Shown: positions 6,235 to 21,841 of the stretch, in pieces
Layout: the number at the start of each line of letters is the position of its first letter
Position numbering within the stretch: position 1 is the first letter of the stretch
Origin: a virus
DNA length: 64,000 bases
Virus record (IMG/VR): IMGVR_UViG_3300050120_000230
Coordinates: 150,325 to 214,324 of that record
Strand: one strand, 5' to 3'
Made by a program: the position numbers and the translations under genes
Notes under the pieces: generated by a model
Seen by the model: the letters and a program-made list of their open reading frames with translations, nothing else
What the model was told of the DNA's origin: nothing
The model's database searches: none

Positions 6235-6521
6235 GGAACAAGTTTCTCGACCGTCCAGATGCCGAGTTCTTCGCCATATGGATCGACACCGATTTCGCCA
6301 CGACACAGCGATGTCCACGCCGTCCCAACCCATCCATTTTCGTATTCGGGCATCCCGGCGCCGCAGAGGCTCAACTGATAGCCGAGATGTTTTTCCAGAG
6401 CGTGGTCGAACGCTGCGGGATCATGCGTCGCATCGTCATCTTCGAACGTGAATTTCTGCTCGCCGTTCAAAAACACAACATACGTCGTCATCGCAAACCC
6501 CATCTCGTGCAACGAATACAT
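6231..6521 (-). CDS. hypothetical protein
   Basis: ORF 6231..6737 trimmed to Met73 (MYSLHEMGF...); the upstream 70 codons are Cys/Arg/Pro-rich and fall in the structured non-coding region. Confidence 0.4.
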   Translation of the reverse strand: MYSLHEMGFAMTTYVVFLNGEQKFTFEDDDATHDPAAFDHALEKHLGYQLSLCGAGMPEYENGWVGTAWTSLCRGEIGVDPYGEELGIWTVEKLVP

Positions 6522-7294
6522 ATCATCAACTGGTTTGGGTGGAAAGGCCGCGAGTGCACTCCGCACCGTTTCGGCAAATCCCGCTACGCATAGCGGGCAG
6601 ACTAGCGGCCGGTCCCAGCCTTTCCCCCAAACCAATTGAGTGGTGAGTGTCGGACGACACAGTCCTGTCGGTCTGCATCCAGATTCCCGAGTCGGGCATT
6701 GCTCCCGAATTCTCCGCGAGGGGGTTATGATACCCAAGCGGTGGTGCTGTTACCCTCGGCGACAACTCAGCGGCCATCCCTCCACCCGTCATCCCTCGAC
6801 CCGAAAGTTGCCGGGATGGCGAATTCGTGGCACCCACTTCGTTGCACAATCAACCCCGGTATGGACTGCCGGGATGTGCACTAAAGGAGGGGGCAAGGCG
6901 CCGCAAGCTGGTCCCCTCTTTTTCTACCGAACTTCAGATGTCCAATCCTACGTGCTCGGCGACAGTTCGAATATTCCGCTACTGGGGGTCCTTTTTCAGG
7001 AGGCAGTCTACCCCCTTACTAAAAGACCCTTTTCGCGAGGACATCCGCTCTCCCCGATCTGCGCTGCGGAGACTAACCCGCCCGCTCTGACCGAAGTGCG
7101 CTACGCCCAAAACCCTTCGTGTGGTTACAAGAACCCCCGGCTCAATACGCTTAGGCTCAGCCCGCATTGGGCCTGCCCCAGCAACCTTCCGGCGTTGAAA
7201 CCGGCGTTTACGCGTCTTCGCTTACCGCACCCCACCACGAGGTGTTTCGGCTAGAGATGGTGGCCCGGAGGCTCATGTAACCACACGCATACTG

Positions 7295-7394
7295 TGCGGG
7301 GACTAGGGCTCGAACCTAGTGTCTTCCCTACCTCACCGAGTGTGGCCACACCCTCGTATAGTAGGACTGCTCTAACCCGCTGAGCTACCCAACA
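7295..7394 (-). ncRNA. tRNA-like element with D-arm, T-arm (CTAGG-TTCGAGC-CCTAG) and a 29-nt palindromic insertion in place of the anticodon loop; acceptor strands do not pair
   Basis: GCTCAGCGGGTTAGAGC D-arm and canonical T-arm found by eye; inserted hairpin contains GTGTGGCCACAC. Confidence 0.4.
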
Positions 7395-7616
7395 AAACCT
7401 TTTCGGACTTACCGGTTCATCACCGCGCCGAGCGTGCCCCGAAGGGCGGAATTGGCACCACGAGGAAGACTTGCACTTCCATACCCTTGTCAACAGCAAG
7501 GCTCATCATATTCCCGCAGATCGTGGCCACGATCTCCGGCTTTTAGATCACCGTGGTATCTCGTGCCCTCTCGGGCATGTTCATGTTGGTAGCCGTTCCC
7601 CGCTAAGGGACAGTCT

Positions 7617-7673
7617 TATTCGTGGTGGGGATCGAACCCACGACCCAAGGCTCTACCGCTGAGCTACACGACC
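7617..7673 (-). ncRNA. anticodon-arm-less mini tRNA-like element (acceptor + D-arm + T-arm, 57 nt)
   Basis: GGTCGTG-TA-GCTCAGCGGTAGAGC-CTTGGGTC-GTGGG-TTCGATC-CCCAC-CACGAAT; only 8 nt between D and T arms. Confidence 0.4.
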
Positions 7674-8467
7674 TACACTACCACACTTTCACTCAGTTCG
7701 CGTGCACGCTCCCCGAGCTAAACCTAGATTGCGTGAACCTCTCAACGATAGAGCGGAAGGATCAGGCCGCTTCATTGCTTCCACGGCCCATACGATCCAA
7801 TCACCACGCAACCAAACCTTCGTGCCCATTCGGGCGAAATCTCCAACCACGCCCTCGCTCTAAGCGAACGACAACGGATCGGCGAGGTGTCATCGCTGTC
7901 TAGCCCACGATGGTCCCCTTCGGATCGCTCACGCTATATTTCAAGACGCAGCGCCGCAACTTTTTGCCCATTCAGGCGAATTGGTGGAGGGACTTCCCTC
8001 TCCAACGAAGCGGCTCGCGCGGGGCCATCTCCAAAGTCGGAGTGTGAAGTTGGGCCTACCCCCTAAGCAATGGCATTTCGGCCACTCAGGTTTATCCCAC
8101 TTTTCCAGCCTAGTCTCGGGTCTAGAAATCCCTACCTTCAGCTTCTCTCGACACTGAGGGCCAGACACTTCCTCCTGAACCCTCGCGAGGGTTAGAGAAT
8201 CTGCGCTGACACTTTTAGCTCGGAATGCTCACGCAATCCCGCCTCAGTAATTCGTGTTGCCTTCCCGAGATCAGAACGCTGGTAAACCGCCGGGCCAAAC
8301 CCTTTGGCTCTTCCAAGGACTTCTGGTTAGCTAATGCCGAACCAGCGCCCCGTTCTCAAGAACAACCTCAATCTACACCGCCCCCGAGAACGGTCAAGCA
8401 ATTTCTTTTGGTTGACCAAAAATCTTTTCGTGGGAGTATTCAATCTATAGTCAGCCGGGAGAACCAT

Positions 8468-8938
8468 GTGCAATACGAGACCCACATCTTCAGCAAGAAT
8501 GAGCCGTGGGCCACCGAATGGCACATCCTCTACTTGACAGCCGCCGACGCGGAGAAGGTGTTTCTCAGCACAAATGAATCCGTGAAAGGCTACCGTCGCA
8601 ACGGTGGCGAATGGGCGCGCGCCAGTCATGATAGCTATCGCTATCTCAGGCGTGAAGTTGATGAATGGGTCCGTGCCAATGCCGGACCCCAAGAAGGTGA
8701 AGTGTGGGAATGCGACCGCTACTACCACGCGGACGAGCCTCTCCCAGCATTGCCGCAACGCGCCGGTCGCCGAGCATGGCTGGATGCCTTCAAATGCTGG
8801 CCAGAAGTCTACGGAAACTACCATCATCACCAGTGGGCGGCCGGATCGCACCTCGACACCGAAAAGAAAGGGATCAGAGCTTTCATTCGGTTCAGAAGCG
8901 AGACGACCGCTGTGCTGTTCAGGACGCTGTTCCTGTAA
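8468..8938 (+). CDS. paralog-family protein (...HQWAAGSHLD...IRAFIRFRSETTAVLFRTLFL)
   Basis: ORF 8225..8938 trimmed to in-frame GTG preceded by GGGAGA; upstream part lies in the structured region. Confidence 0.45.
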   Translation: MQYETHIFSKNEPWATEWHILYLTAADAEKVFLSTNESVKGYRRNGGEWARASHDSYRYLRREVDEWVRANAGPQEGEVWECDRYYHADEPLPALPQRAGRRAWLDAFKCWPEVYGNYHHHQWAAGSHLDTEKKGIRAFIRFRSETTAVLFRTLFL

Positions 8939-8940
8939 AT

Positions 8941-9014
8941 TGGCAGGGGTGGAGAGAATCGAACTCTCGTCTTGGGTTTTGGAGACCCCTACTCTACCAT
9001 TGAGCTACACCCCT
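8941..9014 (-). tRNA. tRNA-Trp (anticodon CCA)
   Basis: manual cloverleaf: AGGGGTG/CACCCCT acceptor, loop CTCCAAA, T-arm GAGAG-TTCGATT-CTCTC, CCA encoded; A1-U72. Confidence 0.75.
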
Positions 9015-9094
9015 ATTAGATAACTTGGGATACCACCGGTTGCAAATCAGGATATATACGTAATACTTACGTATTTCCGGGGGCTATCACGACA

Positions 9095-9364
9095 ATGACT
9101 ACTCCATCTACGATCAACGGCGCCACTGTGACTATTGTCAGGATTGGCAAATCTCTCGTTTCCTTGCAGTCACAAAATCTCGTCACACAACCCGCAAGCG
9201 CCGGGCAGATGTCCTTCCAGATCAATTGCGATTCGAAGCTGCTGATCGCGAACTCGAAGATCACGATTTTCTCTTCGACGTTCGGTGCGAAGATCGACAA
9301 CGTCACCGTCCTCGCCGATCATTTCGGCGCGGGTAGTCACCAGATCACTGGCCACGTCATCTGA
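9095..9364 (+). CDS. small hypothetical protein
   Basis: 89-aa ORF between tRNA genes; weak RBS. Confidence 0.3.
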   Translation: MTTPSTINGATVTIVRIGKSLVSLQSQNLVTQPASAGQMSFQINCDSKLLIANSKITIFSSTFGAKIDNVTVLADHFGAGSHQITGHVI

Positions 9365-9368
9365 ATTG

Positions 9369-9458
9369 AGAATCAGGTGGGACTCGAACCCACGGGGACA
9401 AGCTTCGCTTGTTACGGGGGTAAAAACCCCGCCCTCTCGCCGCTGAGGTGACTGATCC
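9369..9458 (-). tRNA. atypical long tRNA-like gene (90 nt, long variable hairpin ACAAGC-GAA-GCTTGT, anticodon loop TTTTTAC reading TTT); identity uncertain
   Basis: acceptor GGATCAG/CTGATTC, T-arm GTGGG-TTCGAGT-CCCAC, anticodon stem CGGGG/CCCCG; three nt between acceptor and D stem. Confidence 0.45.
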
Positions 9459-9498
9459 ATTTATTGAACATTCGTAGAGATATCAATACTATTGGTTA

Positions 9499-10092
9499 AT
9501 GTTTTGTGAATTTTGTTCTGACTTGATTTCTTCTCGATATGGTTCTGGTCGTTTTTGTTCTTCCAAAAGTGCCAGAGGTTTCAGCACCAAAGCTAGGCGC
9601 GCAGAGATCAATTCCAAGGTCAGCAAGAAATTATCGAATAGACCGTCTGGTCGAACGCTCGATTGCGTGACCATTTCTTTTCTGGCTGACAAACGACGTG
9701 AAAAACTCATGGAACTGCCATGGGAATCAATTGGCCTATACGCCAAAAAATCTCGCGTTCTGGGTGAACAAAATCACCGGTGCAATGGATGCAACCTTGA
9801 TGAATGGCGGGGCCAGCCGTTGGTTTTGGAAATCGAACATAAAGATGGCAATAACCAAAACAACGCCCGAGAAAATCTCGAAGGCTTGTGTCCGAATTGC
9901 CATAGCCAAACGCCAACATGGCGTGGTCGTAACAAGGGTCGATCTAAATCAATCTCAGATCAAGAATTCATCGAACATCTGCAAGCTGCTAGCAGCATTC
10001 ATCGCGCGCTGTTGAGCTTAGGTCTCTCAGCGAAGGGAACGAATTATAACCGTGCGAGAACTCTCATCCAATCACATGGCATTTCTATGTGA
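9499..10092 (+). CDS. HNH endonuclease
   Basis: HNH signature ...CNGCNLDEW...EIEHKDGNNQNNARENLEGLCPNCH; stop abuts tRNA-Lys. Confidence 0.65.
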   Translation: MFCEFCSDLISSRYGSGRFCSSKSARGFSTKARRAEINSKVSKKLSNRPSGRTLDCVTISFLADKRREKLMELPWESIGLYAKKSRVLGEQNHRCNGCNLDEWRGQPLVLEIEHKDGNNQNNARENLEGLCPNCHSQTPTWRGRNKGRSKSISDQEFIEHLQAASSIHRALLSLGLSAKGTNYNRARTLIQSHGISM

Positions 10093-10168
10093 TGGTGAAC
10101 CCCCTCGGATTTGAACCGAGAATCTCCTCCTTAAAAGGGAGTTGCATTAACCGTTATGCTAGGGGTCC
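10093..10168 (-). tRNA. tRNA-Lys (anticodon TTT)
   Basis: GGACCCC acceptor, D GCAT/ATGC, loop CTTTTAA, T-arm CTCGG-TTCAAAT-CCGAG, CCA encoded. Confidence 0.75.
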
Positions 10169-10354
10169 GTTAGAAAGTAGCATTCAGAGGTGAATTCATC
10201 TCGGGATATTCTGTCGCGAGAACAGACCCTTCATATGTTCCCCAGCCAACGAAAGCCAGAACTAAAGCAATGATTGTGGTGCCGAGCGCGATTTTGAATG
10301 TCTTTTGCATAGCAACAATTTATCTCTCTGAGATGTTGCGATGCAATATATTTG

Positions 10355-10438
10355 AGGGCGCGGTGGGACTCGAACCCACGGTGTGCTTACGCAAAAAGAT
10401 TAAGAGTCTTCCCCCTTCGCCGCTCGGGACACGCGCCC
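10355..10438 (-). tRNA. atypical class-II-like tRNA (84 nt; Tyr/Ser-like D-loop GAGCGGCGAA, 15-nt variable arm) whose anticodon loop reads CTCTTAA (CTT); identity uncertain
   Basis: acceptor GGGCGCG/CGCGCCC, T-arm GTGGG-TTCGAGT-CCCAC; anticodon stem AAGA/TCTT. Confidence 0.45.
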
Positions 10439-10442
10439 ATGT

Positions 10443-10517
10443 TGGTGGATCGGGAGAGATTCGAACTCTCGACCTTGGGCTTAAGAGGCCCCTGCACTAC
10501 CGCTGTGCTACCAATCC
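10443..10517 (-). tRNA. tRNA-Lys (anticodon CTT)
   Basis: GGATTGG acceptor, loop CTCTTAA, T-arm GAGAG-TTCGAAT-CTCTC, CCA encoded. Confidence 0.7.
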
Positions 10518-10521
10518 ATTG

Positions 10522-10609
10522 TAGTCCTGCTTGGATTCGAACCAAGATCACGCCCCGATCTGGGACTACGGATTATAAATCCGACGCTCTGCCGTTGAGC
10601 TACAGGACC
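10522..10609 (-). tRNA. atypical long tRNA (88 nt, about 21-nt variable region) with anticodon loop TTTATAA (TAT); Ile-UAU-like or other, uncertain
   Basis: GGTCCTG acceptor, D GCTC-AACGGCA-GAGC, T-arm CTTGG-TTCGAAT-CCAAG. Confidence 0.45.
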
Positions 10610-10667
10610 AAAGGGTCTGCTGTAGCAGCGATATTCGTTTACTCATTTGGTCCTCCTCTTTTTGCTG

Positions 10668-10751
10668 TGCGCTCGGCTGGGCTCGAACCAGCAAGACCTT
10701 CCGGCCGCTCCGTTTTAAGTGGAGTGTGGCTACCAGTTTCACCACGAGCGC
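10668..10751 (-). tRNA. tRNA-Leu (anticodon TAA)
   Basis: class II: 3-bp D stem, loop CTTAAAA, 15-nt variable arm, T-arm GCTGG-TTCGAGC-CCAGC. Confidence 0.7.
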
Positions 10752-10756
10752 ATGAT

Positions 10757-10838
10757 TGGTGCCCCTCCTCGGATTCGAACCGAGATGCTTTCGCGCCAGA
10801 TTTTGAATCTGGTGTGTCTACCGTTCCACCAGAGGGGC
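10757..10838 (-). tRNA. tRNA-Leu (anticodon CAA)
   Basis: loop TTCAAAA, stem CCAGA/TCTGG, 11-nt variable arm (GCGAAAGC), CCA encoded. Confidence 0.75.
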
Positions 10839-10881
10839 ATAGAAACCTGAAGATCACATGGCGTGAACCTCAAGTCCATAT

Positions 10882-10963
10882 TGGTGCGGATGGAGGGAAT
10901 CGAACCCCCACGCTTTCGCAACAGATTCTAAATCTGCCGTGGCTACCGTTACACCACATCCGC
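10882..10963 (-). tRNA. tRNA-Leu (anticodon TAG)
   Basis: loop TTTAGAA, variable TGCGAAAGCGT, T-arm GGGGG-TTCGATT-CCCTC, CCA. Confidence 0.75.
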
Positions 10964-10971
10964 ATTGTAGT

Positions 10972-11058
10972 TGGTGCGAATAGCAGGACTCGAACCTGCA
11001 CGGCCTTTCGGCCACTGACTTCTGAAGCCAGCGCGTCTACCTATTCCGCCATACTCGC
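10972..11058 (-). tRNA. tRNA-Leu (anticodon CAG)
   Basis: D GCGG-AATAGGTAGA-CGCG as in bacterial Leu, loop TTCAGAA, 15-nt variable arm, CCA. Confidence 0.8.
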
Positions 11059-11066
11059 ATTGTATT

Positions 11067-11148
11067 TGGTGCCCAGAACAGGACTCGAACCTGCACGCCG
11101 AAGCAACATCCTCTCAGAATGCCGTGTCTACCGTTTCACCATCTGGGC
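11067..11148 (-). tRNA. tRNA-Leu (anticodon GAG)
   Basis: loop CTGAGAG, variable TGCTTCGGCGT, CCA. Confidence 0.75.
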
Positions 11149-11156
11149 ATTGTAGT

Positions 11157-11232
11157 TGGCACAACCGACTGGGCTCGAACCAGTGGCCTCATCCTTCGGA
11201 GGGATGCGCTCTTCCAACTGAGCTACGGCTGT
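11157..11232 (-). tRNA. tRNA-Arg (anticodon CCG)
   Basis: loop CTCCGAA, stem CATCC/GGATG, A1-U72, CCA. Confidence 0.7.
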
Positions 11233-11244
11233 AAATGATGTGCT

Positions 11245-11321
11245 TGGCAGAGACGACAGGGATCGAACCTGTGACCTCCTGATTCGTAGTCAGGCGCTCG
11301 TTCCGGCTGAGCTACGCCTCT
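11245..11321 (-). tRNA. tRNA-Arg (anticodon ACG)
   Basis: loop CTACGAA, stem CCTGA/TCAGG, T-arm ACAGG-TTCGATC-CCTGT, CCA. Confidence 0.75.
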
Positions 11322-11346
11322 GCAAAGCACATCATCGAAGTGTGTT

Positions 11347-11422
11347 TGGCTGGAACGGAGGGGATCGAACCCACGACCTTCAATTCCGCAAACTGACGCT
11401 CTTCCAACTGAGCTACGTCCCA
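11347..11422 (-). tRNA. tRNA-Arg (anticodon GCG)
   Basis: loop TTGCGGA, stem TCAGT/ATTGA, CCA; T-stem has one U-U mismatch. Confidence 0.65.
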
Positions 11423-16966: not shown

Positions 16967-17051
16967 TGGGGAATGGTGTAATGGTAACATCCCTGACTTT
17001 GAATCAGGAGACGAGGAGTTTATGTAGGTTCGAGCCCTACTTCCCCAGCCA
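16967..17051 (+). tRNA. tRNA-Gln (anticodon TTG) with unusually long (15-nt) variable region
   Basis: TGGGGAA/TTCCCCA acceptor, loop CTTTGAA, T-arm GTAGG-TTCGAGC-CCTAC, CCA; variable AGACGAGGAGTTTAT. Confidence 0.55.
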
Positions 17052-20240: not shown

Positions 20241-20315
20241 GCTTGGGTAGCTCAGGGGTAGAGCAGTGGGCTGAAAATCCGCGTGTCGTTGGTTCGATTC
20301 CAACTCCAAGCACCA
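20241..20315 (+). tRNA. tRNA-Phe (anticodon GAA)
   Basis: loop CTGAAAA, D GCTC-AGGGGTA-GAGC, T-arm GTTGG-TTCGATT-CCAAC, CCA. Confidence 0.75.
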
Positions 20316-20485
20316 TTTTGGTTATTTTGACCGCAAGGTAGATCATACCGCCCGGCCAAAGCAAACCGCCCCACAAAACTTGGCACAGAAATGTGCACAA
20401 GTCGAAGTGGTTGGATTTGATCTCTATGACCTGAAGAAGGCCCCAGAAGATCAATCCAATCAAAGAGTAAACAATCCATGGGCTC

Positions 20486-21616
20486 ATGCCCATATTTAGA
20501 GAGGAACGGTCCCTTGGAGTTTCACGGCTAAGCCCAGAGCGCCTTAATCGGTATCTGGCACTGCAAGATTTGACCGACGCATCGTCGGGCGAACACGCAA
20601 TCAACCTCGTGCTGGACAAGCTGGTAACGGCAATTGAGCAATGGTCGGGCCTCAAGGCAGACATCGTTCGGTCCACTCCTATCGTTTCCGTTCGGGACAA
20701 CTACGACCGGCTCTACTATGAGCCGGACGCGGTCGCACGCTCTGCGCGCTATTCCCACTACGTTGACGATGAGCACATTCTTCGCACCCACACGACGGCG
20801 GCCATTCCCGGCCTGCTGACGGAGACCACGGCCGACCGGCTGATGGTTCTACCGGGTCTTGTCTATCGCCGCGATGTGATGGATCGGATGCATGTGGGAG
20901 AACCGCACCAAGTCGATCTCTGGGTCGCTAGGCGGTCAAGGCTCCGTCGTGATGATCTGTTGAAGATGATCGGCGCGGTTCTCAACGCGATCCTGCCCGG
21001 CTGCGAATACCGCTGCAACGAGACAATCCATCCATACACAGTAAATGGCTTGGAGGTCGAGGTTCGTGTGGACGACCGGTGGATAGAGGTGCTCGAATGT
21101 GGGGAAATCCATCCGTGGCTTTTGAACGACAACGGCTTGCCTAGTCAGGAGTGGTCGGGCTTGGCGATGGGGCTGGGCCTAGACCGCCTTGTAATGCTCC
21201 TGAAGGGCATGGACGACATTCGGCTGCTTCGCAGCACGGATGCTCGTATTGCCCGCCAGATGGCTTCCCTGAGCCCCTACGAGGCTGTTTCGAACCAACC
21301 TATGACCAAGCGGGATATGTCGCTCACGGTGAGTGATCCTGACATCGAATTGATCGGAGATCGCATCCGGGTGGCGCTCGGTGATCGGGCTGACTGGTTG
21401 GAAGAGATCGTGGTCGTTTCGGCATCGAGTTGGGATGAAGTCCCGGCCGTGGCGAGGGAGCGTCTTGGGATGGCGCCTGAGCACACGAACCTGTTGCTGC
21501 GGCTCATCATGCGCTCACCGTCCGAGAGCATTCCGAAAGAGATCGCCAACGAAATCTACGACATAGTCTATGGCGAGCTTCACGAAGGATCGGCGGGGTA
21601 TCAGCGTGTATCATAA
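20486..21616 (+). CDS. pheS: phenylalanyl-tRNA synthetase alpha-subunit (PheS)-like class II aaRS catalytic core
   Basis: motif 2 VLPGLVYRRDVMDRMHVGEPHQVDLWV (cf. [27 protein letters not shown]) and motif 3 SGLAMGLGLDRLVMLLKGMDDIRLL (cf. [25 protein letters not shown]); ILRTHTTAAIPGLL matches LLRTQTSGVQIRTM; lies directly after tRNA-Phe. Confidence 0.75.
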   Translation: MPIFREERSLGVSRLSPERLNRYLALQDLTDASSGEHAINLVLDKLVTAIEQWSGLKADIVRSTPIVSVRDNYDRLYYEPDAVARSARYSHYVDDEHILRTHTTAAIPGLLTETTADRLMVLPGLVYRRDVMDRMHVGEPHQVDLWVARRSRLRRDDLLKMIGAVLNAILPGCEYRCNETIHPYTVNGLEVEVRVDDRWIEVLECGEIHPWLLNDNGLPSQEWSGLAMGLGLDRLVMLLKGMDDIRLLRSTDARIARQMASLSPYEAVSNQPMTKRDMSLTVSDPDIELIGDRIRVALGDRADWLEEIVVVSASSWDEVPAVARERLGMAPEHTNLLLRLIMRSPSESIPKEIANEIYDIVYGELHEGSAGYQRVS

Positions 21617-21766
21617 ACAAGACGGGAAGGCCCTTAATGCATCGTTTATGATGCACTACGGTCGATTTCACAGTCTAGTGCATCAGTTTTGATGCATTAC
21701 GCAATTCGCCAAAAATGACGAGTTATGAACAAAAATAGCCCTAACTCGTCAAAATTGGCGAATTAT

Positions 21767-21841
21767 GTCGATGTAGCTTAGTGGCTAAAGCATCCGGTTG
21801 AAACCCGGAGATCGGCGGTTCGAACCCGCCCATCGGCACCA
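21767..21841 (+). tRNA. tRNA-Phe (anticodon GAA), second copy
   Basis: loop TTGAAAC, stem TCCGG/CCGGA, T-arm GGCGG-TTCGAAC-CCGCC, CCA. Confidence 0.65.

Follow-up and report, generated by a model that had tools for sequence, protein, structure and literature searches.

Results

A gene-free locus beside a tRNA array

The window (the whole stretch of 64,000 nucleotides that was analysed) carries a conserved, structured, non-coding locus at 6540-8397 on the minus strand. The contig around it is phage-like, and a 415-kb contig from JGI is 99% identical to the window. Judged by the helicase (52-60% identity), Sinorhizobium phage Phosso and Agrobacterium phage Atu_ph07 are its closest relatives in culture. 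The locus lies within an island of translation-related genes comprising tRNA arrays, PTH2 and PheRS. A 14-gene tRNA array was found by ARAGORN at 8941-11422 on the minus strand; it also contains an HNH endonuclease gene. Between locus and array there is a gene for a protein of 156 aa (8468-8938, plus strand), which has no Pfam match and no PDB fold match and whose AlphaFold model is of low confidence (mean pLDDT 68). The initial annotation had placed a candidate giant non-coding RNA at 6740-8467, immediately before the tRNA array. The region is real and the array is nearby, but the conserved unit reaches further, and the 156-aa gene intervenes.

A syntenic, gene-free locus of 1.6-1.9 kb is present in six related huge-phage lineages (relatives are given below by L numbers). 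A small co-directional gene follows it in four of the six, while L004 and L029 have a downstream gene that runs convergently towards it; the downstream gene of the window has no homologue adjoining the locus in L002 or L004. The RNA was assigned to the minus strand by a GC skew of about -0.18 across 7000-8500, and minus-strand folds, taken per 200 nt from 6400 to 8400, are usually more stable by 10-20 kcal/mol.

No gene was predicted by the gene callers in 6492-8467. The longest ORF of the region has 204 aa (6640-7254, plus strand), and its ORFs have neither a Pfam match nor a positional counterpart in the relatives, nor is any frame conserved. When mismatches were sorted by position modulo 3, their distribution was flat in Modules A, C and F (chi-square p 0.32-0.86), while the same test on the flanking genes gave skewed distributions (p 0.002 and 3e-7). 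Indels in the locus are mostly not multiples of 3. The earlier statement that there is no credible ORF here is therefore upheld, and no coding gene was recovered through a frameshift either.

The predicted promoter (Table 1) would start transcription near 8363 on the minus strand. Both of its hexamers are kept in L002, L004, L007 and L008, and a variant form is present in L027 and L029. The inverted repeat TGGTTGACCA is found in the window and in L002, L004, L007, L008 and L029; since its plus-strand reading includes TTGACC, it may serve as an operator or supply the -35 element of a divergent promoter. The presence of one conserved promoter, together with a similar overall length everywhere, is compatible with one long primary transcript. 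In the leader region the relatives have different sequence, including modules with T-arms.

Table 1. Features of the non-coding locus in 5' to 3' order of the RNA (positions refer to the window).
Feature	Positions	Strand	Description
Inverted repeat TGGTTGACCA	8409-8418		upstream of the RNA promoter; conserved
Predicted sigma70-type promoter	8370-8397	-	TTGACC (8397-8392), N16, TAGATT (8375-8370); from a promoter scan
5' leader	8155-8362	-	lineage-specific; no similarity to other lineages
Module A	7960-8154	-	about 195 nt, 11 helices; 52 pairs, 10 compensatory
Window-specific insert	7823-7959	-	ends in a second copy of the Module A 3' end
Module B	7729-7822	-	hairpin with invariant loop UGGAAGCAAUGAAG
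Module C	7548-7726	-	5' hairpin, long-range helix with tRNA-like domain, inner hairpin, terminal GNRA hairpin; 39 pairs, 12 compensatory
Window-specific segment	7433-7547	-	no homologue in other lineages
Module X	7397-7432	-	portable, near-invariant stem-loop, CGGCGCGGUGAUGAACCGGUAAGUCCG, some 30 nt long
Module D	7288-7396	-	tRNA-like domain with long rod; 27 pairs, 8 compensatory, 4 lineages
Module E	7116-7288	-	multi-stem domain; 51 pairs, 18 compensatory, 5 lineages
Spacer between E and F	6966-7115	-	window-specific; no similarity to other lineages
Module F	6540-6965	-	about 420 nt; shared with L004, a small part with L002; 106 predicted pairs, 22 compensatory, two sequences only

Separately folding modules supported by covariation

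At least seven cassettes (A, B, C, X, D, E and F) make up the locus. They fold separately, and A, C, D, E and F are each a multi-helix domain supported by covariation. Module A is the only one present in all six full-length lineages; the contig of L007 ends early and holds its 5' end. A covariance model of this module (R1) scored 137-229 bits, with one copy per locus. Its 10 compensatory pairs compare with 3.8+-1.5 after shuffling, where none of 500 shuffles reached the observed number, and with 1-5 in slid controls. The UCUAGA loop (8121-8126) is borne by helices P1 and P2; these helices are near-invariant, so that their support comes from conservation and not from covariation. Single-sequence minimum-energy folds of Module A disagree across lineages. 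A further apical loop, CCCGCGCGA, contains CGCGCG at 8016-8021, and the module closes at its 3' end with a GCCU-GAAU-GGGC hairpin. The second copy of this 3' end, GUUGGAGA...UUCGCCCGAAUGGGCA, lies at 7823-7850. The two copies of a repeated motif that had been noticed earlier share a 16-nt core, TTCGCCYGAATGGGCA, which lies on the minus strand once at 7823-7838 and once at 7965-7980, where chance would give 0.08 matches. In L027, the homologue of Module B directly follows A's own 3' hairpin.

Module B is common to L027 and L028 at 83-87% identity; its loop also occurs in L029, with a stem that appears compensated when read by eye. In Module C, the 5' hairpin bears a palindromic apex, GCGUGCACGC (7700-7709), and a covarying long-range helix of 10 bp encloses the tRNA-like domain. 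Its 12 compensatory pairs exceed those of shuffled (3.7+-1.5; 0 of 500) and slid (0-2) controls. The window-specific segment that follows holds a perfect 18-nt palindrome, AGAUCGU-GGCC-ACGAUCU (7518-7535). Module X is 94-100% identical in L002, L027 and L028, with a variant in L004 and the core alone in L029; its neighbours vary by lineage and L002 has two copies. Module E is closed by a helix of 13 bp, GUGUGGUUACA / UGUAACCACAC, and contains a UNCG-type hairpin. Module F, 71.5% identical to L004 across 421 nt, includes the palindromes GGCGCC (6897-6902) and GAGUGCACUC (6552-6561).

The region had been described as dense in stable hairpins. Thermodynamically it is unexceptional, folding-energy z-scores in 200-nt windows being an unremarkable +0.9 to -2.4; what speaks for structure is the comparison between lineages. 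Module A is 84% identical across 186 nt between phages whose flanking 156-aa proteins are 61-65% identical. In a global alignment of the window with L004, identity is about 80% for A, about 79% for C and about 68% for the 156-aa gene.

Modules are reordered, gained and lost between lineages, a cassette shuffling that resembles that of the genes in the tRNA array. Because order and presence vary in this way, no single fixed fold of 1.7 kb is supported. In the consensus fold of the window and L004, 323 of 361 predicted pairs are local, with a span of at most 250 nt; the long-range helices between modules are few, predicted from two sequences and too weak to be used. What had been called a candidate giant non-coding RNA is protein-free and structured, with tRNA-like modules near a tRNA array and with conservation and covariation in six lineages, but a single giant RNA with one overall fold is not supported.

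Searches for further homologues in IMG/VR returned only one chance match to the Module X pattern, located within a protein-coding gene that four near-identical contigs share. A metagenome scan returned only the contig of L004, a genome scan gave 16 chance matches only, and blastn against the INPHARED phages found none. Around its PheRS homologue, the 635-kb phage LR745206 carries neither tRNAs nor Module A.

tRNA-like elements lacking the anticodon loop

The two tRNA-like elements that the initial annotation had seen on the minus strand were located in Modules C and D. The domain in C (7617-7673) scored 37.3 bits with the Rfam tRNA model (gathering threshold 29) and has its anticodon arm deleted; the element in D (7300-7390) scored 19.4 bits, below the gathering threshold, and has an insert of 35 nt. 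Both retain the acceptor, a D arm with GG in its loop and a T arm with the UUCGA T-loop motif, and neither forms a full cloverleaf. At default settings, ARAGORN calls neither of them.

In Module C, the acceptor stem covaries and the tRNA arms are conserved. The anticodon arm is absent in three lineages and is a hairpin with a loop of 3-4 nt in L002 and L004. In Module D, the acceptor is short and the anticodon arm is replaced by a long closed rod, whose tip is an invariant 12-nt palindrome, GTGTGGCCACAC / GUGUGGCCACAC (7340-7351); GTGTGGCCACAC is the palindrome pointed out previously. In every lineage, all T-arm-bearing elements of the locus are devoid of a 7-nt anticodon loop. No CCA is encoded after C or D, while most bona fide tRNAs of the phage encode it.

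Self-complementary apical loops

Several apical loops are self-complementary, and some keep this property while changing in sequence. The P2 loop of Module A is UCUAGA in the window, L004 and L028, and L007 matches as far as its contig reads. It is UGAUCA in L029, UGAUAUCA with a central AU insertion in L027, and UGAUCG closed by G.U wobble pairs in L002. The H1 loop of Module C is GUGCAC in the window, AUGCAU in L004 and L028 and AUCGAU/GAUCGAUC in L027; in L002 it has no palindrome. The loops CGCGCG and GGCC do not vary. The RNA of the window contains a single UCUAGA, whose sole Watson-Crick partner would thus be a second copy of the same RNA.

Taken one by one, the loops fall short of significance, since shuffles of a loop's own letters give a palindrome of equal length with P of 0.03-0.2 per loop, and the comparison covers six lineages of one clade, in which the loop variants are few and related. 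Region-wide, palindromic 6-mers are not enriched (19 observed versus 28 expected), and palindromes of at least 10 nt are (5 versus 1.8). A global enrichment was considered and dropped, as it was not significant for 4-, 6- or 8-mers. For OLE (GGCC, GAUC, AGCU) and GOLLD, covariation that preserves palindromes served as the argument for symmetric kissing loops, and both RNAs were solved as RNA-only homo-oligomers (PMC12286853).

Tests against known RNA families

Rfam 15 recognises only tRNA in the locus. The initial annotation had suggested a GOLLD/ROOL-type RNA. In location and size the locus resembles GOLLD, with a phage-like contig, a 14-tRNA array nearby and a conserved unit of about 1.8 kb. 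The proposed membership was not borne out: neither GOLLD (RF01998) nor ROOL (RF03087) gave a match at gathering or at E<=10 on the window and on sub-windows of 250-800 nt, the searches at E<=10 covering 6400-9100, 7930-8180 and 6500-7300. The two models found no match in L004, L028 and L029 at E<=1.

Group I and group II introns had no Rfam match in the locus. RNase P RNA had none at E<=10; a resemblance to it that was read by eye (GAAGCUGA and GAGGGAAGUCC) was discarded, the words not being conserved in the relatives. Where Module A of the window has the CR-I-like word GAGGGAAGUCC, the relatives have GAGGGAAGUGCC or GAGGGAUUGGCC. Concerning tmRNA, no Rfam match was displayed, the output suppressing up to three lower-scoring same-clan matches under tRNA whose family was not shown, and ARAGORN at default settings found none. 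A permuted tmRNA at 7294-7603, obtained with ARAGORN at the 80% threshold only, was rejected for its implausible tag (AGDRGHDLREYDEPCC) and lack of Rfam support. The same program's tRNA-Leu with an intron of 651 nt was also rejected; it has a mismatched acceptor stem, appears at the lowered threshold only and has no Rfam support. YrlA (RF02553) had no match inside the locus, and its sub-threshold matches in the relatives are ordinary tRNAs outside it.

Discussion

A conserved RNA locus and its possible assembly

The best reading of the locus is as a large phage RNA of a new class that occupies the niche of GOLLD and ROOL. We consider it a conserved non-coding RNA locus of a huge-phage clade whose modules would form a particle displaying tRNA mimics, a reading to which we give a probability of roughly 45%. 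Like GOLLD and ROOL, the locus would function as RNA. Transcribed on the minus strand under its own predicted promoter, the RNA would provide modules that most likely assemble, through symmetric kissing loops, into a higher-order and probably homo-oligomeric particle. Candidate kissing loops are found in A (UCUAGA and CGCGCG), C (GUGCAC) and D (GGCC). Assembled in this way, the RNA would present its tRNA mimics to factors that recognise the tRNA body and not the anticodon; possible partners are RNase P, RNase Z, the CCA-adding enzyme, T-loop modification enzymes and host nucleases or toxins. A single rigid particle made from the entire transcript is hard to reconcile with the variation of module order between lineages. 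The stronger proposal, that a new class of RNA assembles by itself, free of protein, via symmetric kissing loops into a particle of anticodon-less tRNA mimics, is possible but doubtful.

The most serious alternative is a polycistronic precursor, cut at the tRNA-like domains by RNase P together with RNase Z (or RNase E), from which separate small stable RNAs are released. The modules would then work singly, with no large particle, in parallel to the T4 tRNA cluster that yields RNAC and RNAD. These two are stable phage RNAs (PMC9697503). The shuffling, gain and loss of modules like cassettes would suit a precursor. So would the similar GCCC-GNRA/GAAU-GGGC hairpins at the ends of A, the window-specific insert and C, which might protect 3' ends, and the 7-bp acceptor stem plus T arm of C, a typical minihelix substrate of RNase P. 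However, the tRNA-like domain of C is locked in the covarying 10-bp helix of its own flanks, so that excision would leave these flanks paired and not released. The missing CCA after C and D departs from most phage tRNAs, and the consistent replacement of the anticodon loop and the persistent self-complementarity of the loops are left unexplained. For the locus as a whole we regard such processing as rather unlikely, while noting that the precursor and the particle are not mutually exclusive.

A decoy function is distinctly improbable. Here the mimics would soak up host factors that recognise the shape of tRNA, such as defence nucleases and toxins, and thereby shield the large set of tRNAs that the phage has. 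Phage tRNA sets are known to counter tRNA-cleaving defences, the locus lies in a tRNA and translation island, and every tRNA-like element in all lineages has kept the GG of the D-loop and the UUCGA T-loop while losing the anticodon loop. Yet it is precisely the missing anticodon loop that many known tRNA-directed defence nucleases read. Besides, most of the locus consists of A, E and F, which include its most conserved module (A) and are not tRNA-like, and no defence or anti-defence gene is linked to it.

That the locus is a divergent GOLLD or ROOL overlooked by the Rfam models is very improbable. The niche is the same (a large, ornate phage RNA beside tRNA arrays, with tRNA-like inserts), and GOLLD, too, has a variable and a conserved half. 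But the conserved half of GOLLD is the 3' one, of about 400 nt, after a variable 5' half, while the conserved part here is 195 nt near the 5' third, and neither RF01998 nor RF03087 matched the window, its sub-windows or three relatives.

Slightly less credible still, and already disfavoured, is the view of the locus as decaying tRNA pseudogenes or junk, or as the long 5' leader of the small downstream gene. In its favour are the tRNA-like remnants beside a tRNA array with an HNH endonuclease gene, and the small co-directional gene in four of the six lineages. Against it, nucleotide conservation is above that of the neighbouring genes, compensatory changes are above controls and loops are invariant across lineages; the convergent gene in L004 and L029, and the want of a homologue of the window's gene by the locus in L002 or L004, also count against it. 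Finally, a hidden protein gene that depends on a frameshift or on an alternative genetic code is effectively refuted: reassigning one stop codon does open up to 270 codons on the plus strand, but codon periodicity, a conserved frame and Pfam matches are absent, most indels are not multiples of three, no suppressor tRNA is found among 31 tRNAs, and the flanking genes read normally in table 11.

Comparison with known systems

If the modules of the locus assemble or bind tRNA-handling enzymes, as we propose, this would point to a role of such RNAs in infection, and a self-assembling particle would tie the GOLLD/ROOL phenomenon directly to recognition of the tRNA body. Three handles make this testable: the tRNA shapes lacking an anticodon loop, the small Module A (195 nt, in six lineages) and the self-complementarity of apical loops that is kept by compensatory change. 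Even otherwise, the locus contributes several structured RNA motifs that go unrecognised by Rfam 15.

For the candidate loops, a parallel is the dimerisation initiation site of HIV-1, where a 6-nt palindrome (GCGCGC or GUGCAC) within a 9-nt hairpin loop brings about homodimerisation by loop-loop kissing. The CCCGCGCGA loop of Module A is likewise a 9-nt loop with a 6-nt palindrome, and the apex of the 5' hairpin of Module C carries the same hexamer, GUGCAC; the context is unrelated and the analogy is one of mechanism only. As for the tRNA mimics, YrlA and the tRNA-like domain of tmRNA also imitate the body of acceptor, T-arm and D-arm without an anticodon loop. YrlA is circularly permuted relative to tRNA, its ends lying at the position of the anticodon stem, and in tmRNA the domain is split between the two ends of the molecule, whereas C and D are contiguous and in tRNA order.

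RNAC and RNAD are encoded in the tRNA cluster of T4 and matured with the tRNAs. They are two RNAs of about 120-140 nt each, while the present locus is more than 10 times larger and has its own predicted promoter. RNAC and RNAD are stable RNAs of a T4-like phage, are not tRNAs and still lack a known function (PMC9697503).

GOLLD and ROOL are both neighbours of phage tRNA islands, and tRNAs are in some cases embedded in GOLLD. The locus is like GOLLD in being large and ornate, in its place in phages or prophages by tRNA islands, in combining variable and conserved parts and in its tRNA-related inserts. It differs in that its core is a 195-nt module, the order of modules varies, the inserts are anticodon-less mimics and the GOLLD model gives no match. 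Oligomers of GOLLD have been solved, while oligomerisation of the present RNA is inferred from its candidate loops. With ROOL, which forms RNA-only cages through kissing loops and A-minor contacts, it shares the character of a large structured phage RNA near tRNAs; unlike ROOL, it has several separable domains over about 1.8 kb and no match to the model. If the transcript of about 1.8 kb is one molecule, it exceeds in length both ROOL, which averages about 580 nt, and the solved GOLLD (833 nt). These RNAs beside phage tRNA islands are abundant and form RNA-only cages, yet they are without known function, and the locus looks like an independent example, from huge phages, of the large RNAs of tRNA islands.

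A gene-free RNA locus conserved among huge phages

The locus is a conserved, promoter-equipped, non-coding region on the minus strand, built of covariation-supported cassettes that include tRNA mimics without an anticodon. In these huge phages it occupies an island of tRNA and translation genes and, as the initial annotation had noted, lies near a long tRNA array (14 genes, same strand as the RNA). The window, part of a 64.9-kb contig from a public read-set assembly, looks like phage DNA: it encodes 31 tRNAs, a PheRS-like and a collagen-repeat protein and a UvsW-type helicase. Judged by that helicase, the closest phages in culture are all jumbo phages, namely Sinorhizobium phage Phosso (59.6%), Agrobacterium phage Atu_ph07 and Pseudomonas phage PA5oct. 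Searches with the flanking 156-aa and 105-aa proteins, followed by contig comparison, gave five more lineages in which 1.65-2.5 kb at the syntenic position hold no genes: L002/L003 (570-kb contig, NCBI metagenome-assembled genome), L004/L005/L006, L027 (288-kb contig), L028 and L029/L030; L007 and L008 are partial sequences. To judge from contig sizes, the genomes of these relatives measure roughly 290-570 kb. No homologue of the locus was found in IMG/VR, GTDB species genomes or cultured phages, and the JGI metagenome set returned L004 only; within the data reached, the RNA family seems restricted to this huge-phage clade.

The absence of a credible ORF, claimed initially, was upheld: gene callers leave 6492-8467 empty, and no ORF of the locus is positionally conserved or has a Pfam match. 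Between lineages, nucleotide identity rises to 84-86% in parts of the gap, against only 50-65% identity for the flanking protein. When the window was compared with L004 or L029, mismatches in modules A, C and F were even over the three codon positions (p 0.32-0.86) and indels were mostly not multiples of three, while the two flanking genes showed an excess of third-position mismatches (p 0.002 and 3e-7) and 3-nt indels only. None of the 31 tRNAs is a suppressor pointing to recoding. A hidden protein-coding gene is unlikely, and so is junk or leader sequence.

Rfam 15 reported tRNA only, both in the window region (at gathering score and at E≤10, sub-windows of 250-2700 nt) and in three relatives (E≤1). 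Thus, GOLLD and ROOL, the large ornate phage RNAs named initially for comparison, found no match, and neither did RNase P RNA, tmRNA, group I/II introns or YrlA. RNase P RNA was also rejected on the RNase-P-like word in module A, which is not conserved. ARAGORN intron and permuted-tmRNA calls appeared at lowered thresholds only and are implausible, and divergent GOLLD/ROOL membership is unlikely.

Strand, promoter and neighbouring genes

GC skew is about -0.18 across 7000-8500, which makes the minus strand the G-rich one, and over 6400-8400 its folds usually surpass those of the plus strand in stability by 10-20 kcal/mol per 200 nt. Folding-energy z-scores against shuffles are ordinary (+0.9 to -2.4), so thermodynamics alone do not single out the region. 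A promoter scan predicted a sigma70-type promoter, TTGACC-N16-TAGATT, kept in the window, L002, L004, L007, L008 and L029, with a variant form in L027 and L029. The L029 variant (TTGACC with TATGTT as best -10 candidate, read by eye) is present although the locus there comes after five tRNA genes and a small ORF. The inverted repeat TGGTTGACCA upstream is kept in the window, L002, L004, L007, L008 and L029; its position in L027 falls outside the stretch read. TGGTTGACCA holds a plus-strand TTGACC and so could serve the 156-aa gene as the -35 of a divergent promoter, or act as an operator. Counted from the promoter, the unit is 1.6-1.9 kb long in all lineages. A search of the minus strand gave no intrinsic terminator.

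The 156-aa gene is divergent from the RNA in four lineages. Its product is rich in invariant Trp, Cys and His (WECDRYYH) and has no Pfam match, no fold match and a low-confidence AlphaFold model; JGI protein P0001 (237 aa) is a call of this gene that extends too far, across the promoter. In relatives, an ORF of 62-63 aa abuts or overlaps the start of this gene. The window lacks that ORF (at 8409-8467), so that the RNA promoter region abuts the 156-aa gene. Four tRNAs of 85-91 nt, called Lys(ttt), Lys(ctt), Ile(tat) and Gln(ttg), have long variable arms, and their copies in relatives give sub-threshold tRNA-Sec scores. In bacteria, such arms normally occur only in Leu, Ser and Tyr tRNAs. Two tRNA-Phe(gaa) genes enclose a PheRS-alpha-like gene with a class II tRNA-synthetase core; its best phage match is LR745206, an uncultured 635-kb phage (45% identity).

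Features of the locus and its surroundings (window positions unless a relative is named) and comparative support for the modules
Feature	Position	Strand	Sequences	Predicted pairs	Compensatory pairs
Module A	7960-8154	minus	6	52 (11 helices)	10
Module B	7729-7822	minus
Module C	7548-7726	minus	5	39	12
Module X	7397-7432	minus
Module D	7288-7396	minus	4	27	8
Module E	7116-7288	minus	5	51	18
Module F	6540-6965	minus	2	106	22
Module A first hairpin	8029-8146
tRNA-like element, module C	7617-7673	minus
tRNA-like element, module D	7300-7390	minus
Repeated motif	7823-7838; 7965-7980	minus
Palindrome	7340-7351
Window-only hairpin	7518-7535
Predicted promoter	8397-8370	minus
Inverted repeat	8409-8418
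156-aa gene	8468-8938	plus
62-63 aa ORF of relatives	L002 9813-10001; L004 9813-10004
tRNA array	8941-11422	minus
HNH_3-like ORF	9499-10092	plus
Long-variable-arm tRNAs	9368-9458; 10354-10438; 10521-10609; 16967-17051
PheRS-alpha-like gene	20486-21616 (region 20241-21841)
tRNA-Phe(gaa) genes	20241-20315; 21767-21841
5' leader module of relatives	L007 1-860; L027 13455-13600; L028 6150-6320

Shuffled cassettes and conserved structure

Pairwise comparison of six gaps delimited the cassettes, which are separated by window-specific stretches. Their order is A-B-C-X-D-E-F in the window, A-C-X-E-D in L002, A-B-X-C-E in L027 and A-X-B-C-E in L028. Module D is absent from L027 and L028; in L029, BLAST detects A and D only, the B loop and X core being visible by eye. 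Module A alone is common to the six lineages; covariance model R1 finds it exactly once in each locus, at 137-229 bits. At the 5' end, relatives carry a further leader module that includes two T-arm hairpins; the window lacks it. Both the palindrome GTGTGGCCACAC and the two copies of a repeated motif (TTCGCCYGAATGGGCA; 0.08 expected by chance) were present as initially described. Within the minus-strand tRNA array, a plus-strand ORF weakly matches HNH endonucleases (Pfam HNH_3, under cut-off) and is a candidate homing endonuclease that may contribute to cassette shuffling.

The conserved structure anticipated by the initial annotation is borne out by compensatory pairs in modules A, C, D, E and F, above controls for A and C, the modules that the shuffle and slid-partner controls cover. 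Shuffles gave 3.8±1.5 compensatory pairs for A (0/500 reach 10) and 3.7±1.5 for C (0/500 reach 12), and slid partners gave 1-5 and 0-2, respectively. Single-sequence minimum-energy folds of module A differ among lineages, so its consensus is based on comparison and not on energy. A consensus fold of the whole unit, built from two sequences (window, L004), is mostly local, with 323 of 361 pairs spanning ≤250 nt, and no convincing helix was found to join distant modules. The first hairpin of module A contains a 7x7 internal loop, GA-NNN-UA on both strands, whose central triplets change jointly among lineages without Watson-Crick pairing (AGG/GAC, GAG/GGG, CAA/CGA, CGA/CAA, GGG/GAG); the loop resembles a conserved non-canonical motif or a contact site.

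tRNA-like domains without an anticodon

The two partial tRNA-like elements seen initially on the minus strand belong to modules C and D. The element of module C (Rfam tRNA, 37.3 bits) lacks the anticodon arm and reads GGUCGYG-UA-GCUC-AGCGGUA-GAGC, then GUGGG-UUCGAUC-CCCAC-CRCGAAU. Its acceptor stem contains a covarying Y6-R67 pair, its D arm keeps GG and its T arm ends in a canonical T-loop. The anticodon-arm site is empty in three lineages and holds a hairpin with a 3-4 nt loop in two. The whole domain is enclosed by a 10-bp helix of its own 5' and 3' flanks, with compensatory changes in 5/10 pairs. The element of module D (19.4 bits, 35-nt insert) combines D and T arms with a short acceptor stem. 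In place of the anticodon arm it has a covarying stem of 6-7 bp, followed by a conserved internal loop and another stem with the invariant GUGUGGCCACAC as its cap. Additional T-arm elements of relatives likewise lack a 7-nt anticodon loop, and L002 and L007 have a near-complete cloverleaf, absent from the window, whose 'anticodon' loop is the 5-nt CACAA. No CCA follows C or D, whereas most true tRNAs of the phage encode it.

Self-complementary loops

The apical loop of the first hairpin of module A contains UCUAGA in the window, L004 and L028, and the truncated L007, which ends inside it, agrees as far as read. L029 has UGAUCA, L027 has UGAUAUCA, where a central AU insertion keeps the palindrome, and L002 has UGAUCG, self-complementary via G.U pairs. 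The apex of the 5' hairpin of module C bears GUGCAC in the window, AUGCAU in L004 and L028 and AUCGAU/GAUCGAUC in L027; L002 has no self-complementary loop there. The loops CCCGCGCGA of module A and GGCC at the apex of module D are invariant, and a window-only hairpin, AGAUCGU-GGCC-ACGAUCU, repeats the GGCC apex. Because UCUAGA occurs once in the RNA and the adjacent loop nucleotides are unable to pair, its natural partner would be the same loop of a second molecule. By this argument symmetric kissing loops were inferred in OLE (GGCC, GAUC, AGCU) and GOLLD, both RNA-only homo-oligomers by cryo-EM (PMC12286853). The loop variants are few and related, shuffling each loop's own letters gave P 0.03-0.2 singly, and 6-mer palindromes were not enriched over the whole region. 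As a sign of kissing-loop oligomers, the loops are suggestive only.

Possible function

We propose, with a probability of about 0.45, that the RNA itself is the functional product, as with GOLLD and ROOL. Self-complementary loops of separate molecules would pair, probably giving a homo-oligomer, and this would offer its tRNA-shaped domains to factors recognising the body of a tRNA. The main rival, rather unlikely and compatible with the oligomer reading, is that cleavage at the tRNA-like domains turns a precursor into several independent stable small RNAs, comparable to T4 RNAC and RNAD, which have no assigned function (PMC9697503). A tRNA decoy against host tRNA-directed factors is possible and considerably less probable.

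GOLLD and ROOL are also large ornate phage RNAs next to tRNA islands, and have no assigned function. ROOL averages about 580 nt and the solved GOLLD has 833 nt; if the unit is a single molecule, it would be longer than both. The family is absent from Rfam, while its general kind, large phage RNAs by tRNA islands, is already known. Unlike GOLLD and ROOL, the RNA described here has a cassette architecture, anticodon-less tRNA mimics, one of them locked inside a helix, and a small module common to every lineage.
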